This document shows positions 1 through 17,598 of a stretch of 34,239 nt of DNA, piece by piece. The stretch is taken from the IMG/VR virus record IMGVR_UViG_2917881069_000005; one strand, given 5' to 3'. This DNA is from a virus (taxonomy: Duplodnaviria > Heunggongvirae > Uroviricota > Caudoviricetes). Under the pieces are notes generated by a model, which worked only from the letters and a program-made list of their open reading frames with translations, did not search any database and was not told where the DNA came from. Both the position numbers and the translations under genes were made by a program. The first letter of the stretch is position 1. Each line of letters starts with the position of its first letter.

Positions 1-474
1 ATGTACAGCCCGGTACAAATAGCCAATAAATTCATAACGTTGGGAAACCAACATCATAATCCTCTGACCCACATGCAACTGCAGAAGCTTACTTATATTG
101 CCCATGGTTACTATTTAGCATTAACAGGTAAGCCTTTGCTCAACGAATGTGTCTCTGCGTGGAAGTACGGTCCGGTTATTCCCGGAATGTACGATGCTTT
201 CAAAGATTATGGGAATAAGCCTGTTACGAATGTAGCAGTAGCTCCTTTTGGTGGCATTGTTACTATGGATCCGCAAGCAGAGAGCATTATAGGGGCTGTT
301 TATAAATTTTACGGCTCGAAAAATGGAATTGAGTTATCAACTCTAACTCATATGCCAGGTACGCCTTGGTCACAAACTTATAATGGTATTGGCTCGTCAA
401 TCATCCCAGATGATGCGATCAAGACTTATTATCATGATTTATTGAATAACCGACAGCAATGTCAGGGCCTCTGA
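1..474 (+). CDS. Panacea-domain (DUF4065, SocA/GepA-like) protein; putative antitoxin or abortive-infection component
   Basis: 157-aa ORF starting at window base 1; signatures recalled for Panacea/DUF4065 (LTHMQLQKLTYIAHGYYLA, AWKYGPVIP, LSTLTHMPGTPW); may be 5'-truncated by the window edge. Confidence 0.6.
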   Translation: MYSPVQIANKFITLGNQHHNPLTHMQLQKLTYIAHGYYLALTGKPLLNECVSAWKYGPVIPGMYDAFKDYGNKPVTNVAVAPFGGIVTMDPQAESIIGAVYKFYGSKNGIELSTLTHMPGTPWSQTYNGIGSSIIPDDAIKTYYHDLLNNRQQCQGL

Positions 475-496
475 AAAAGTAATATTCAGGGATGAC

Positions 497-1045
497 ATGT
501 CTCGCAATTCAGATATCTATAAACTTATCGGAGCGGCTGCAGGTGTTGAAAATGGTCGCTCTGAAGCATCCTTAAACTATACTGACAGTCAAGAACAGGT
601 TTTTAAATCTGCATTTGAGCCGTCTAATCATGAGAGCGATGATGATTCTTCTTCAGAAAATAAAGCTATTCTGGAGGAAGAAGAGTTTGGTTCTAATACA
701 GGTGCATTGCATGAGTTTATGCAGCAGCACAGAATGGACAGTCTTCAAGCTCAGCTTGATATGCTCAAATCACAAGTACGCGATAAGATAGCTGACGCAA
801 CTGGTAAAGAAATAGACAATGAACTTCGGACAAAAATGGCATCATTCACGGTTTGTTTTATGTCGTGGTGGTGCTTATTTGTAGCCGTAATGTTTGTATC
901 GTTTCTTATTGCTCATGAAGGAAAGCCTCCAGTTGAAGCAATCGTTGCATTACTAGGTACAAGTACAATTAGCATTGTTGGTTTGGTTGGTTTCGTTGTT
1001 AGTGGATTGTTCAAATCAAGAAAAGATGGCGATAAAGAAAAATAA
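497..1045 (+). CDS. small membrane protein: acidic Asp/Ser/Glu-rich and coiled-coil N-terminal part, two C-terminal hydrophobic helices; putative toxin/effector partner
   Basis: 182-aa ORF 22 bp downstream of the Panacea ORF on the same strand; hydrophobic segments FTVCFMSWWCLFVAVMFVSFLIA and AIVALLGTSTISIVGLVGFVVSGLF; no family recognised. Confidence 0.5.
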   Translation: MSRNSDIYKLIGAAAGVENGRSEASLNYTDSQEQVFKSAFEPSNHESDDDSSSENKAILEEEEFGSNTGALHEFMQQHRMDSLQAQLDMLKSQVRDKIADATGKEIDNELRTKMASFTVCFMSWWCLFVAVMFVSFLIAHEGKPPVEAIVALLGTSTISIVGLVGFVVSGLFKSRKDGDKEK

Positions 1046-1063
1046 CCCGTATATACACGGGTT
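1044..1063. terminator. hairpin between convergent genes (possible bidirectional terminator)
   Basis: AACCCGT-atatac-ACGGGTT perfect 7-bp stem between the + strand ORF ending 1045 and the - strand ORF ending 1079; A-rich upstream, T-containing downstream. Confidence 0.4.
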
Positions 1064-1078
1064 ATTCATGGTTTTAGT

Positions 1079-1378
1079 TTAGTTATATTTTTGTTTATCC
1101 GTTCTGACCTTTTCCCACTCAGCTCGTCCTTCTTCTCGTCTTTTGTCTATGTATTCCGCAAGATCCTGAATATTGATGCAACGTTTTGCTTTTTGTGATG
1201 TGCCGATGCGATATGTTGGAACGGGCAACTTACAAGCGTTTGCTTTTGCTTCTGCCGTGGCTGGGCTCATGCCAAAGTACTTTTGGCTAACTGCTGAGAG
1301 TTCAATGTTAGGGGTATTGAATTCAGCCATCAGTAAAAACAAGGTGTTCATAATTTTCTCCATCAAAACCGGCTGCAC
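1079..1378 (-). CDS. excisionase-like DNA-binding protein (PrtN family-like)
   Basis: 99-aa ORF; LLMAEF...LPVPTYRIG.SQKAKRCINIQDLAEYIDKRR resembles PrtN/phage excisionase family; last gene of the leftward operon. Confidence 0.6.
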   Translation of the reverse strand: MQPVLMEKIMNTLFLLMAEFNTPNIELSAVSQKYFGMSPATAEAKANACKLPVPTYRIGTSQKAKRCINIQDLAEYIDKRREEGRAEWEKVRTDKQKYN

Positions 1379-4312: not shown

Positions 4313-5137
4313 TCAGGCGGTGAAAGTACCAATAAAGGTTTCTACTTTGCTGTCTTTGAATTTCTCAACAAGCAGATCACGAAATTCGTTAGCCATTTCT
4401 TCCTGCACTGCTTCCAGCTGAATAATGCGCAGAACCAGTACAGGACGATCGCCAGTGATAATGCTGAGGCGTAATTTAAACGGACGTTCTTTCAGGCCTT
4501 CAAACGGAACGCATTTAAATTCAAATGCCACTGGCATAATGTCTTTGGTTTTCGCTTCGACAGACTCCATCAGGGAGCGTTTGCCGCTGAAGTCATTATC
4601 TTCAAAATCAGCGGTCTTGTTTGCTTCAATCGTGATTTTACGGACTGCCGCAGCCGCTTTTGTTGCCTGAATAGCGTCACCATTAGCATCAAAGCCCACA
4701 AGGTAGTCGGCCCAGTCTTCAATCCATTCTGCCAGTGACTTCTGGGAGTTACGCTCGCCGTTAACAGACAACAGGGCAGAGAACGGTGCTGTCTTTTTCA
4801 GTTTGAGAGTGGCGGTGTTATCTGCGTGACCTGGTTCATCAATAGTACCCAGGTTAAGCACACTGACTGCTCGCATATTATCGGCATCGATAAAGCAGCG
4901 GGTGCCTTCATCTGCAAGATCTTTAGAATAACGGGTAAAGTCATCGATGCTGGCAGTGGAAAGCGCACCACGGAAACGGAAGCGATTTAAATTAAATTTT
5001 TCCAGATCATGAATGCGGAAATTCTCAGGCAATGCCACAGCATCGGCACCAATCTTACTGATAATTTCATTAACACCCTGAGCAGAAATAAGGGCATGGA
5101 TTTGATTAATTGCGGTTGCGTCTAAGTTCTGAGACAT
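4313..5137 (-). CDS. yfdQ: DUF2303 protein, YfdQ-like
   Basis: 274-aa ORF; size, position and sequence character match recollection of E. coli CPS-53 YfdQ. Confidence 0.6.
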
Positions 5138-7230: not shown

Positions 7231-7794
7231 ATGAGGCTAACCGTGGGTAAGCATCACTGGAAAGTAGAAAAACAGCCTGAGTGGTACGTGAAAGCTGTCA
7301 GAAAAACTATCGCGGCGTTGCCGGGGGGGTACGCTGAAGCTGCTGAGTGGCTGGATGTAACAGAGAACGCTTTATTCAACCGCCTTCGTGCAGATGGCGA
7401 TCAGATTTTCCCGCTGGGATGGGCAATGATTTTACAGCGCGCGGCTGGCACTCACTACATTGCGGATGCTGTCGCACAGTCTGCTGGTGGGGTGTTTGTA
7501 TCGCTTCCTGAAATTGAGGAAGTAGAGAACGCCGATATAAACCAGCGCCTGCTGGAAGTCATCGAACAGATCGGGAGTTACTCAAAGCAGATTCGTTCGG
7601 CAATCGAAGATGGGGTAGTGGAGCCACACGAGCAGACAGCAATTAATGATGAGTTGTATCTGTCAATTTCGAAGCTCCAGGAGCATGCAGCACTGGTCTA
7701 CAAAATCTTTTGCGCTCCAGAAAAGAGTGACGCCCGCGAGTGTGCAGCTCCGGGCGTCGTGGCGTTTTGTGTCTGTGGAGAAACTAACGCATGA
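7231..7794 (+). CDS. YdaT-like protein (proposed CII-type regulator)
   Basis: 187-aa ORF directly after cro; position and sequence character as in Rac-type ydaS-ydaT pairs. Confidence 0.4.
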   Translation: MRLTVGKHHWKVEKQPEWYVKAVRKTIAALPGGYAEAAEWLDVTENALFNRLRADGDQIFPLGWAMILQRAAGTHYIADAVAQSAGGVFVSLPEIEEVENADINQRLLEVIEQIGSYSKQIRSAIEDGVVEPHEQTAINDELYLSISKLQEHAALVYKIFCAPEKSDARECAAPGVVAFCVCGETNA

Positions 7795-8627
7795 ACAGTT
7801 TAACGGCAAATAATCGTTTGTCGCAACAGCTGGTGGTCAGTGTCGCTGAACACCTGTTGTTACGGCATGAATGCAGATTACCAAATCACCTGGCTGTAAG
7901 TAACCACAGAGAACTTTACCTGACTGTGGGGGGCGAGTTGTGCAGGAACTTAACCGCTGGTTTCGTGACGGAAGAGGGCTTTATGTCCATGTTATTCGTT
8001 GGGAGCCAGAAACACAGCGCGTTATCTATCTTCGCAAAGACTACCCGCATGAGTGCTTTAGTCCTTTGTGGAAATTCAGGCGTGATTTTGTTGAGTGTGA
8101 AGGACCACCAGCACATTGATTCTGCCATTCCGGGACGTTACACTGTTCAGGCACCTTATAAAGCGGGTGCCGGGATTGGCGTCCTGGAATTGCATACGGC
8201 GACAATTGGCGCGTTAGCGTCTTTTTTGTTGCTACAACTCAGCTATACCCAAATTATGGTGGGCTGGGTGGGGGCACCGAAAGGTGCGCCGGTTTCCGTA
8301 TGCGCCGGTTACGCCAACCCTGCTCAGTTCACCACCAGCGAAATTGGCGTTTCCGGTGGTGGAAGTTATCCATTGCATACGGAGGCTGCCATCATGGCTA
8401 CTGTCCCAGCCCTCTCTCGTCTGAATGATGACGACTTACATAAACTCAGTTATGTAACAACTGCACTACGTGCTCTGCGCAAGGTAACTCTTTCGGATCC
8501 GCAGGCGCATCAGGTTCTGGTAGAAACCCTTCTTAACTTGCAGGCTGAACGTATTCGTCTGGCGGATAAGGCTAATTTTCATATTCACCGTCTCCTTAAT
8601 ATCAGCGGAGGGCATCGTCATGCTTAA
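7791..8627 (+). CDS. hypothetical protein
   Basis: 278-aa ORF; ATGA overlap with upstream stop suggests translational coupling; no domain recognised. Confidence 0.4.
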   Translation: MNSLTANNRLSQQLVVSVAEHLLLRHECRLPNHLAVSNHRELYLTVGGELCRNLTAGFVTEEGFMSMLFVGSQKHSALSIFAKTTRMSALVLCGNSGVILLSVKDHQHIDSAIPGRYTVQAPYKAGAGIGVLELHTATIGALASFLLLQLSYTQIMVGWVGAPKGAPVSVCAGYANPAQFTTSEIGVSGGGSYPLHTEAAIMATVPALSRLNDDDLHKLSYVTTALRALRKVTLSDPQAHQVLVETLLNLQAERIRLADKANFHIHRLLNISGGHRHA

Positions 8628-13371: not shown

Positions 13372-13734
13372 GTGATATTCAAATGGTTCTTGGAACGTTG
13401 GGGGGCATGGGTGGCAAATAATCACGAGGATGTCACCTGGTCGTCTATTGCTGCAGGATTTAAAGGACTAATCCCTTCAAAAGTAAAATCCCGCCCGCAA
13501 TGTTGTGACGATGACGCGATGATCATTTGTGGGTGCATGGCTCGCCTGAAAAAGAACAACAGCGATTTGCACGATTTATTAGTGGATTATTATGTAGGTG
13601 GTATGACGTTTATGGCGCTTGCCCGTAAACATGGGCGTTCTGATTGCTGGGTTGGGCGTTTATTGCAAAAGGCTGAAGGTGTAGTTGATGGCATGTTAAT
13701 GATGTTAGAAATTGAGCTAGAGATGGATCGTTAG
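13372..13734 (+). CDS. late antiterminator Q (short QuuD-type); N-terminus frame-disrupted
   Basis: [27 protein letters not shown] is Q-family-like; long frame can only start at GTG 13372, while a well-placed ATG (13368, GGAG 8 nt upstream) is in another frame and stops after 17 codons. Confidence 0.6.
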
Positions 13735-13818: not shown

Positions 13819-14265
13819 TTAAGGTTTTAATTCATCAAGACGTTGTTGGATAGTGTTTTTGCTTGCGTTGTCTGTTATAGCCATTTGTTGTACTTGCCCC
13901 ATTGCCATTTGAGTTTCCATCCACATATCGGCCCACACTTTTGTATCGTTATTAACTTGAGCGATAGTAAATCTGACTTTTGATACCGGGGTTGTTGAAT
14001 AGGCATTGCCGATTAACATTTGTCCAAAAACAGCAGAGCCGCCTTCCAGTTCTTTACCACATATAACACTGCTGTTATCCGCGTTGTAAATTATCAACCC
14101 TCTACTATTGCAGTAATTCACAAGGGCATCTTTGACTTTATCTTTTGTCATATTTTGATAAACCCCCTCAGGTTTTCCTGATTGAGTTTTCTTTATCAAT
14201 GGTACGGAAGAAGTACAACCTGAAATGATAGTTGCGCTAAGTAATAGTACAGTCATTTTATTCAT
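13819..14265 (-). CDS. lipoprotein (moron, opposite strand)
   Basis: 148 aa; signal peptide with lipobox LLSATIISGC; encoded against the direction of flanking late genes. Confidence 0.6.
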   Translation of the reverse strand: MNKMTVLLLSATIISGCTSSVPLIKKTQSGKPEGVYQNMTKDKVKDALVNYCNSRGLIIYNADNSSVICGKELEGGSAVFGQMLIGNAYSTTPVSKVRFTIAQVNNDTKVWADMWMETQMAMGQVQQMAITDNASKNTIQQRLDELKP

Positions 14266-14889: not shown

Positions 14890-15942
14890 ATGAAAAACAC
14901 TGTAAAAATAAACAGCGTTGATTTAATCAACGCTGATTGCCTGCATTTTATTCAGTCCCTGCCTGATGATTCCATTGACCTGATTGTTACCGATCCGCCG
15001 TACTTCAAGGTGAAACCCAACGGCTGGGACAATCAGTGGAAAGGGGACGAAGATTACCTTAAGTGGCTGGATCACTGTCTGGCCCAGTTCTGGCGGGTGT
15101 TAAAACCTGCTGGAAGCCTTTACCTGTTCTGTGGGCATCGCCTGGCATCTGATATTGAGATCATGATGCGTGAACGTTTCAACGTGCTTAACCATATCAT
15201 CTGGGCGAAGCCGTCCGGACGTTGGAATGGGTGTAATAAAGAAAGTCTGCGCGCATATTTTCCTGCCACAGAGCGCGTTCTGTTTGCTGAACATTACCAG
15301 GGGCCATATCGCGGCAAAAGTGACGGCTATGCGGCAAAAGAAAGGGAACTCAAACAGCACATAATGGCACCGCTGATATCGTATTTCAGGGATGCTCGTG
15401 CCGAACTGGGTATAACGGCAAAACAAATTGCCGAAGCCACAGGTAAGAAAAATATGGTTTCCCACTGGTTTGGTGCCAGTCAGTGGCAGTTGCCGAATGA
15501 GGCTGACTATCGGAAGTTACAGGCACTGTTTTCCCGTATAGCGGCAGAGAAGTTTCAGGAACAACAACTGGAACAACCACACCACCAGCTGGTGGCATCT
15601 TATGATTCACTGAATCGCAAATATTCTGAATTGCTGGATGAGTTTAAATCTCTCCGGCGCTATTTCTCCGTATCAGTCTCCGTGCCTTATACCGATGTCT
15701 GGATGCATAAACCCGTTCAGTTCTACCCGGGTAAACATCCGTGTGAGAAACCGGCGGATATGCTCAGGCAAATAATCAATGCCAGTAGTCGACCTGGTGA
15801 GCTGGTTGCTGATTTTTTTATGGGATCCGGTTCCACAATAAAAGCAGCAATGGCGCTGGGGCGTCGGGCCTTAGGTGTTGAGCTTGAGTCAGAGCGGTTT
15901 AACCAGACAGTGAAAGAGATAAACGAGCTGGTGGGGAAATAA
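14890..15942 (+). CDS. DNA methyltransferase, N6_N4 (beta-class amino-MTase) family
   Basis: DPPY motif (LIVTDPPYF) near N-terminus and AdoMet motif FFMGSGST near C-terminus; 350 aa. Confidence 0.8.
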
Positions 15943-15945
15943 TCT

Positions 15946-15973
15946 GGTGGCCACGTCAGGTGGCCTTTTTATT
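15946..15973 (+). terminator. rho-independent terminator between methyltransferase and holin
   Basis: GGCCAC-gtcag-GTGGCC followed by TTTTTATTT. Confidence 0.5.
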
Positions 15974-16009
15974 TCCATTACACAGCACCCGCATCTGCGA
16001 GGTGGGGTT

Positions 16010-16225
16010 ATGAAATCCATGGATAAGTTAACAACGGGTGTCGCCTATGGCACCTCAGCAGGTAGTGCCGGGTACTGGTTTTTACAGTTGCTCGATAAAG
16101 TCACGCCCTCACAGTGGGCGGCAATAGGTGTGCTGGGTAGTCTGGTATTTGGCTTGCTGACGTATCTGACAAACCTTTATTTCAAGATTAAAGAAGACAA
16201 GCGTAAGGCTGCACGGGGAGAGTAA
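16010..16225 (+). CDS. pinholin (phage 21 S21-like) with dual start
   Basis: MKSMDK dual-start motif; closely matches recalled S21 ([17 protein letters not shown]...[13 protein letters not shown]...[20 protein letters not shown]); ORF track 15947..16225. Confidence 0.75.
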
Positions 16226-16599: not shown

Positions 16600-17598
16600 A
16601 TGAGCGCAAAAATCAAATACGGCCTGTCAGCTGCTGTTCTGGCGCTGATTGCTGCAGGCGCGTCTGCTCCTCAAATACTTGACCAGTTTCTGGATGAAAA
16701 AGAGGGTAACCACACTACGGCATACCGCGATGGTTCCGGTATATGGACCATCTGTCGTGGTGCCACAATGGTGGATGGTAAGCCCGTCATACCGGGAATG
16801 AAGCTGTCGAAGGAAAAATGCGACCAGGTTAACGCTATTGAACGTGATAAGGCGCTGGCATGGGTGGAGCGCAATATTAAAGTACCACTGACCGAACCAC
16901 AGAAAGCGGGTATAGCGTCATTTTGTCCCTATAACATTGGCCCCGGTAAGTGTTTCCCGTCGACGTTTTATAAGCGGCTGAATGCCGGTGATCGTAAGAG
17001 TGCATGCGAGGCGATTCGCTGGTGGATAAAAGATGGTGGGCGCGATTGCCGCATACGTTCAAATAACTGCTATGGACAGGTTATTCGTCGTGACCAGGAA
17101 AGCGCATTAGCCTGTTGGGGGGATAGATCAGTGAGCAGAGTCGCCGCGATTATTTATGCTCTGGTTATCTGCATCATCGTCTGCCTGTCGTGGGCGGTCA
17201 ATCATTACCGTGATAACGCCATCGCCTACAAAGAACAGCGTGATAAAAAAGTCAGTGAGCTGAAGCAGGCGACCGCCACCATTACTGACATGCAGCAACG
17301 CCAGCGTGCTGCTGATGTACTCGATGCTAAATACACGAAGGAGTTGGCTGATGCGAAAGCTGAAAATGATGCTCTTCGGCGCAAGCTTGATAATGGTGGT
17401 CGGGTGCTCGTCAAAGGAAAATGCTCTGTGCCATCCTCAGCCGAAACCTCCAGCGCCTCCGGCATGGGCAATGATGCCACCGTCGAACTCTCTCCAGTTG
17501 CTGGACGAAACGTTCTCGGTATCCGGGACGGAATCATCAGAGACCAGACAGCACTGAGAACGCTTCAGGAATATATCAGGACGCAATGCCTTCGATGA
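16600..17598 (+). CDS. SAR endolysin (T4-lysozyme-type, P21 R-like) whose frame runs without a stop into Rz
   Basis: N-terminal signal-anchor ([18 protein letters not shown]) and lysozyme core ([22 protein letters not shown]); no stop before Rz; G6 run at about 17117-17122. Confidence 0.7.
17131..17598 (+). CDS. Rz: i-spanin Rz
   Basis: [34 protein letters not shown]... nearly identical to recalled lambda Rz; GTG start preceded by GGGGGGA. Confidence 0.75.
17351..17557 (+). CDS. Rz1: o-spanin Rz1 (embedded in Rz, +1 frame)
   Basis: [19 protein letters not shown] lipobox, Pro-rich [12 protein letters not shown]; inside ORF 17306..17557. Confidence 0.7.

Follow-up and report, generated by a model that had tools for sequence, protein, structure and literature searches.

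Nine PanAT toxin-antitoxin (TA) pairs have been verified experimentally, including PanA(Esc. col.)-PanT(Esc. col.) of Escherichia coli STEC O31, which is assigned to the class 'Membrane' (Table 1 of Kurata et al. 2022, PNAS; PMC8832971). Here we compare with this pair two genes, panA and panT, that open IMG/VR virus record IMGVR_UViG_2917881069_000005, a 34,239-nucleotide stretch of Caudoviricetes DNA that is hereafter called the window. That table gives the E. coli toxin as WP_000019185.1 and its antitoxin as WP_000287252.1; the accompanying dataset assigns the toxin to cluster T3 and records the order A|T, a gap of 22, and 'TA' as the lab report (PMC8832971). Expressed alone, PanT(Esc. col.) jointly blocks incorporation of methionine, uridine, and thymidine. 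It also causes strong membrane depolarization (DiSC3(5)) and SYTOX Green permeability, which the authors read as large pores. The inner membrane is the site of this damage, and cognate PanA restores growth (PMC8832971). Neutralization by PanA is independent of ClpXP and Lon; because five other PanAT pairs co-purify, the authors classed PanAT as type II (PMC8832971).

Several other described systems resemble this pair in part. In PanT(Bar. api.) of Bartonella choladocola (PanT-D11:PanA; Kurata 2022, Ernits 2023), a stand-alone Panacea antitoxin likewise opposes a pore-forming, depolarizing toxin with a charged N-terminus and C-terminal transmembrane (TM) helices. However, the Bartonella toxin belongs to cluster T12, whereas the window PanT belongs to T3, and the authors left T3-T12 homology undecided (PMC8832971). 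The disordered N-terminus of the Bartonella PanT, together with its short pre-TM helix, is the predicted contact site of PanA, as supported by mutagenesis (PMC10440598). The antitoxin SocA of Caulobacter crescentus (SocAB, type VI) carries a Panacea/DUF4065 domain, as does PanA. SocA, however, serves as a ClpXP adaptor for SocB, an inhibitor of replication, whereas PanAT pairs a membrane toxin with protease-independent neutralization. RosmerTA (RmrT/RmrA), found for example in Gordonia phage Kita, is also a phage-borne pair, and its toxin has a C-terminal membrane region and both depolarizes and permeabilizes the membrane. Its antitoxin (ImmA-protease/helix-turn-helix type) and its toxin sequence are nevertheless unrelated to PanAT, and anti-phage defense has been demonstrated for RmrTA only. 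The type I toxins HokB and TisB, the former a comparator in PMC8832971, produce the same depolarizing phenotype. They have 30-50 amino acids (aa), one TM helix, and antisense-RNA control, in contrast to the 182 aa, large cytoplasmic domain, and protein antitoxin of PanT.

Identity with the validated E. coli pair

The elements at the left end of the window are as follows.

1..474, + strand: panA, encoding a 157-aa antitoxin that is a stand-alone Panacea (DUF4065) domain; window position 1 is the first base of its ATG
475..496, + strand: panA-panT spacer of 22 bp, with an AGGGA Shine-Dalgarno-like motif at 488-492, 5 nt before the panT ATG
497..1045, + strand: panT, encoding a 182-aa membrane toxin of cluster T3 / phrog_13343
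1041..1067, both strands: terminator-like bidirectional hairpin that overlaps the panT stop codon and forms the right edge of the exchangeable cassette
1079..1351 (RefSeq; alternative end 1378), - strand: excisionase-like PrtN-family gene (PF11112, E 3.9e-23; phrog_1300, excisionase), convergent to the pair and outside the cassette

A first-pass annotation made from the letters of the window had described this arrangement: an open reading frame (ORF) for a 182-aa protein 22 bp behind the first ORF and on the same strand, with the pair convergent to an excisionase-like gene and closed off by a hairpin. All of these elements were recovered, the last two as the PF11112/phrog_1300 gene and the hairpin at 1041-1067.

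Both proteins proved nearly identical to the assayed ones. The window PanA shares 153 of 157 residues with WP_000287252.1 (97%), its four substitutions all lying in residues 126-142. PanT shares 172 of 182 residues with WP_000019185.1 (95%), and its ten substitutions fall in the N-terminal region and TM helix 1 (TM1). The spacer is base-for-base identical in the validated allele (25 nt including the stop codon). WP_000019185.1 was located by allele sampling among complete E. coli genomes. In STEC1588, WP_000287252.1 is followed by WP_000019185.1 and then by the same PrtN-family gene, and WP_000287252.1 was found at this locus in nine complete genomes inspected. The STEC O31 system and the window thus have in common the gene pair, the locus, the antitoxin-first order, the 22-bp spacer, and the downstream PrtN-family gene. 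They differ as allelic variants, by 4 substitutions in PanA and 10 in PanT, and in that the locus was flagged 'NotPhage' there and is a phage cassette here.

As protein identity, locus, order, and spacer are all shared with WP_000287252.1/WP_000019185.1, the window pair is, judged from sequence, an allele of the validated PanAT(Esc. col.) TA system, whose molecular function has been known since 2022. The record of phage PhiR47_1 (PV340566) already annotates the pair as 'PanA antitoxin' and 'PanT toxin'. Ratios of nonsynonymous to synonymous substitution rates (dN/dS) between the window and validated alleles were 0.09 for panA and 0.14 for panT; both are therefore real genes under purifying selection rather than chance ORFs. 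The central proposal of the first-pass annotation, that a Panacea antitoxin and a membrane toxin form a TA moron at a prophage end, has accordingly been shown by experiment for a 97%/95%-identical allele (PMC8832971).

That annotation had also staked its proposal on the two genes remaining neighbors in other genomes, and they do so in 79 of 79 E. coli genomes, 51 of 51 viral loci, and four of four divergent homologues. Among 5,426 complete E. coli genomes, 79 carry the whole 1.1-kb unit, each once and on the chromosome, such that panA accompanies panT in every carrier. In IMG/VR, 51 of the 52 loci with a PanT relative have a same-strand panA directly upstream, and the remaining contig starts at the first base of panT; the pair is thus intact wherever a viral locus could be assessed. 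The divergent homologues (42-64% identity; Enterobacter, Providencia, and Pantoea) each have a Panacea gene of ~155 aa directly upstream. Their identities to the window proteins are 76, 58, 44, and 48% for PanA and 64, 49, 42, and 46% for PanT, values by which the two proteins diverge in step. On a broader scale, ~106 PanA-T3 pairs spread over several phyla are present in the published dataset (PMC8832971).

Protein features and expression signals

PanA matched the Pfam family SocA_Panacea (PF13274) with an E-value of 6.2e-18 and 66.2 bits, well above the gathering cut-off of 25.7 bits, over profile positions 1-112 of 113. The Panacea-like character assigned to ORF 1..474 in the first-pass annotation is therefore borne out. 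PanA also contains the GPV motif (G57-P58-V59), which is invariant in our alignment of homologues with 44-97% identity and has been reported as critical for neutralization by PanA (PMC8832971). The Panacea domain, the GPV motif, and the conserved same-strand two-gene architecture of PanAT systems were thus all found. At the PanA C-terminus, all homologues down to 44% identity share a C-x-G-L tail (residues 154-157, window 460-471), which may serve as a degradation tag or contact PanT. Searches of PDB sequences with PanA and with the PanT profile returned nothing below E 0.29.

Within NCBIfam, the best match of PanA was SocA_antitoxin (NF047745; E 1.5e-28, 99.7 bits), and the Panacea domain is common to both proteins. 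This would favor a reading in which PanA is a SocA-like (type VI) proteolytic adaptor that delivers PanT to ClpXP, with no stoichiometric inhibition. However, the score lies far under the 190-bit equivalog cut-off of NF047745, and the partner is an unrelated membrane protein rather than SocB. Furthermore, PanAs neutralize their toxins in a strain lacking ClpXP and Lon (PMC8832971). We consider such an adaptor very improbable and rejected it on the grounds of the sub-cut-off score and the conflict with protease independence.

PanT gave a full-length match to phrog_13343 (E 6.9e-112) which, together with the 172 of 182 residues shared with WP_000019185.1, places it in cluster T3 and phrog_13343. 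The earlier statement that the membrane partner could not be assigned to any family does not hold in this respect, although PanT lacks a Pfam family. Pfam and NCBIfam yielded no significant family for PanT or 28 homologues, with only sub-threshold hits to DUF2975 and DUF2207_C. A PanT profile search of 1.84 billion representative proteins retrieved 314 clusters at E <= 1e-3 and 15 clusters at E <= 1e-30; the distant matches are shorter proteins that align over the pre-TM helix and TM hairpin only. Three segments of PanT are delimited as follows.

617..691, + strand: acidic Ser/Asp/Glu-rich segment, residues 41-65, net charge -9 (10 D/E, 5 S)
839..910, + strand: TM helix 1, residues ~115-138 (Kyte-Doolittle hydropathy, AlphaFold2 helix, and alignment)
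941..1012, + strand: TM helix 2 (TM2), residues ~149-172, ALLGTSTISIVGLVGFVVSGLFK (hydropathy, AlphaFold2, and alignment)

Of the architecture proposed for PanT at first pass, the acidic segment and the two hydrophobic helices stand, while the coiled-coil is backed only as a long predicted helix. The acidic segment falls within a variable N-terminal region predicted to be disordered. In the homologue alignment, the invariant motif G103..IDN.LR..MA..T..FM..WC.FV precedes TM1. The two hydrophobic peaks of the Kyte-Doolittle profile are separated by a 10-residue loop, and the C-terminal tail, KSRKDGDKEK, is basic. These features fit a helical hairpin of N-in/C-in topology whose cytoplasmic head comprises 114 residues. 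With a 28-sequence alignment as input, AlphaFold2 gave a model of low confidence (mean predicted local distance difference test score, pLDDT, 61; predicted template modeling score, pTM, 0.28). In it, residues 16-53 are disordered, followed by a helix at 53-66, a long helix at 68-139 running into TM1, and a further helix at 146-178. The model is consistent with the hairpin topology derived from hydropathy.

Conservation along PanT is uneven. TM2 (ALLGTSTISIVGLVGFVVSGLFK) has many small residues and hardly varies among homologues that are only 33-40% identical overall, whereas the N-terminal half is highly variable. Because TM2 is so well preserved while the N-terminal half varies, the alignment suggests that TM2 is a conserved pore-forming or oligomerizing helix, or else contacts a conserved membrane target. 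A variable N-terminal half combined with a conserved pre-TM motif and TM2 fits the division of labor predicted for the Bartonella pair.

In relatives, a perfect sigma-70 consensus promoter (TTGACA-16-TATAAT, 12/12) lies 158-185 bp upstream of the panA ATG and ~120 bp from the att core. Its hexamers are invariant in five alleles (positions 4816-4843 of locus L003 and 123-150 of loci L001 and L002). The independent transcription proposed for the pair is supported by this promoter in relatives; it is not visible inside the window, because the window was cut exactly at the panA ATG, as were many IMG/VR contigs. The hairpin at 1041-1067 has a folding energy of -12.7 kcal/mol with z -3.0 on the + strand; for the - strand the values are -14.4 kcal/mol and z -4.3.

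The leader region of relatives showed several further features. Neither an Rfam match (best E 0.48) nor an unusual fold (z -0.08) was seen in the ~150 nt between promoter and panA, and the idea of a riboswitch or structured leader was dropped on these two results. The leader contains a 24-codon upstream ORF that starts with the same ATGTACAG as panA; its codon 4 is not conserved. Four or five copies of AAACA(C)NGTGAT, some as inverted repeats, occur in the interval from the att core to the panA ATG (L003 4770-4990); they may represent an operator or arm-type sites for the integrase. In the lysogen, a truncated 5' fragment of dusA lies on the same strand as panAT, and read-through from the dusA promoter is possible.

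A phage-borne PanAT(Esc. col.) module is very probably the best explanation of the window pair, with the following mechanism. panA and panT would be co-transcribed, antitoxin first, from the consensus sigma-70 promoter just upstream of window position 1. PanT would be anchored in the inner membrane by its C-terminal helical hairpin, leaving the acidic N-terminal 114 residues and the basic tail in the cytoplasm. Unrestrained PanT would form large pores, and the resulting depolarized, permeable membrane would halt replication, transcription, and translation together. The stand-alone Panacea domain of PanA would neutralize PanT. By analogy with Bartonella PanT:PanA, it probably does so through direct contact with the N-terminal cytoplasmic region of PanT and with its pre-TM helix. 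In all of this, the window allele is expected to behave like the assayed allele.

Some observations weigh against this account. The window PanT is 10 residues removed from the assayed toxin, with three of the changes in TM1 (C120W, W124C, and V131G). Pull-down complexes were shown for five other PanAT pairs, the E. coli pair not being among them (PMC8832971), and direct PanA-PanT binding is for this reason inferred in the E. coli case. The panAT promoter is seen in relatives only, as the window opens at the panA ATG. Finally, the U-tract of the hairpin is weak on the + strand, being better toward the excisionase gene than toward panT.

Phage context and the attP-xis slot

The start of Escherichia phage phiSTEC1575-Stx2k matches the 1.1-kb unit at 99.8% identity, and phages PhiR47_1 and 1720a-02 do so at 96%. 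A truncated 105-bp 5' fragment of dusA marks attL in lysogen STEC1575 and is directly followed by the pair, an arrangement that agrees with the position at the prophage left end given at first pass. In the phage record, the integrase gene lies at the end opposite to panAT. An integrase at the far end and the pair at attL therefore indicate the layout int - attP - panA panT - xis. In the 2022 dataset this locus carries the flag 'NotPhage', since the PHASTER run covered no more than four genes on each side of PanA (PMC8832971). panAT is clearly the outermost, attL-proximal cassette of inducible or isolated dusA-integrating lambdoid phages, a finding that is new relative to the 2022 paper. Among the lambdoid phages that carry it are Stx2k-converting and ECOR-derived ones.

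PhiR55_1 and PhiR40_1, two phages that lack panAT, match window 1076-25000 at 98% identity. They share only the first 64 bp past the att core, and homology restarts at 1076, just ahead of the PrtN-family gene at 1079..1351, with which the shared phage backbone begins. The attP-xis slot of PhiR55_1 (206-1196) and PhiR40_1 (222-1212) holds another two-gene cassette with its own terminator. This cassette encodes a 179-aa phrog_8416 protein and a YafO_toxin (PF13957) protein, annotated by the depositors as YafM/YafO. As different TA pairs occur between the same flanks, the attP-xis slot is a TA-cassette exchange point.

The viability of these near-identical sister phages without panAT also bears on a possible function of the pair in the lytic cycle. 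PanT is small, with two TM helices, a charged C-terminal tail, and large membrane pores, and is thus formally holin-like; it might be an auxiliary holin-like or lysis-timing protein, with PanA as antiholin. The window, however, has a canonical lysis cassette ~15 kb away (S-YdfR-R-Rz, ~15.9-17.6 kb; holin 15947..16225, lysozyme, and Rz). PanT lies outside it and has no holin match in Pfam or PHROG. Moreover, the adjacent early-left genes run on the other strand, and panAT has its own constitutive-type promoter and terminator. We find a holin/antiholin pair barely credible and rejected it on account of the separate lysis cassette, the lack of a holin match, and the viable sister phages.

The lysis stretch itself carries an extra G at window 17117 relative to PhiR47_1, which puts the end of lysozyme R in frame with Rz. 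The resulting fused ORF of 332 aa (16600-17598) carries both Phage_lysozyme and Rz domains. Phages mEp460 and PhiR47_1 agree in length over this stretch, at 1449 bp (a comparison of lengths, not a base-by-base alignment), and a second 1-bp insertion is present at window 17605. Either the insertion at 17117 is a sequencing error or it is a frameshift, in which case lysis may be impaired.

PanAT homologues also occur in P2-like prophages, where they sit between gpA and the portal gene. We take this interval to be the tin/old hotspot. One homologue at this position adjoins the RT-Toprim gene of a type I-C retron (PADLOC, E 1.7e-212; L014 3964-5724). Another PanAT homologue adjoins a type I restriction-modification system, a short distance downstream of the gene for a phage antiterminator (L012 3866-6495). 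Such neighbors are consistent with guilt by association with defense, short of proof.

Elsewhere in the window, Rfam gathering-level matches were obtained for the isrK Hfq-binding RNA (61 bits) and the C4 antisense RNA (81 bits), at 8151-8227 and 8252-8339 (+ strand). Together they make up a c4/ant-like immunity element of P1/P7 type, here within a lambdoid prophage. They overlap ORF 7791..8627, whose Pfam Phage_ASH match spans the same nucleotides. A 148-aa ORF at 13819-14265 (- strand; phrog_3152, no Pfam match) lies between the antiterminator gene Q (13372-13734) and a DNA methylase gene (14890-15942), which is the site of stx in Stx phages. No tRNA genes are present in the window, and no stx was present among the ORFs scanned with family models.

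Possible roles in the lysogen

With the molecular function of PanAT(Esc. col.) established, the remaining question is one of biology: how the module benefits the lysogen and what triggers it. Defense of the lysogen by panAT, through abortive infection (the alternative raised at first pass) or against superinfection, is a plausible hypothesis that we rate as coming close to an even chance while falling short of it. A more elaborate form of this idea is somewhat more tentative. Here, the Panacea domain would sense a cue from a superinfecting phage and free pore-forming PanT, making panAT a prophage abortive-infection system. The attP-xis slot would be a dedicated TA-defense hotspot, TM2 would serve as the pore or oligomerizing element, and the variable N-terminus of PanT would set specificity for its cognate PanA. 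Searches for direct evidence of a role in defense came back negative: PADLOC-DB v2 gave 0 families for PanT and only a spurious match for PanA (E 0.021), and no phage-challenge or defense test of PanAT, DUF4065, or Panacea turned up in the literature library that was searched.

The same molecular mechanism could instead serve addiction. Cells that lose the prophage would be killed as labile PanA decays and PanT persists, stabilizing the prophage with no defense against other phages. Type II TA modules on mobile elements are classically assigned this role (PMC8832971, introduction), and the cassette adjoins the attachment site and has a constitutive-type promoter. The alternation with a YafO-type TA pair is also what would be expected of a generic 'selfish stabilizer' slot, and the invariant C-x-G-L tail of PanA might, speculatively, be a protease tag. 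However, the lability of PanA is an assumption, and neutralization is independent of Lon/ClpXP. Homologues are found in known phage-defense hotspots, with a retron and a restriction system as neighbors. In addition, excision of a lambdoid prophage normally kills the cell anyway, so that post-segregational killing would add little. On balance, we regard addiction as unlikely, though a serious competitor to defense.

Phage carriage, a strong promoter of its own, a slot in which TA pairs are swapped, and retron and restriction neighbors together motivate phage-challenge work on PanAT(Esc. col.). A sensor or defense role, if true, would be an incremental and expected advance within a known kind of system. 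A stand-alone Panacea domain sensing a phage signal would, if confirmed, bear on the 'Panacea is a sensor' hypothesis (Ernits et al. 2023, PMC10440598).

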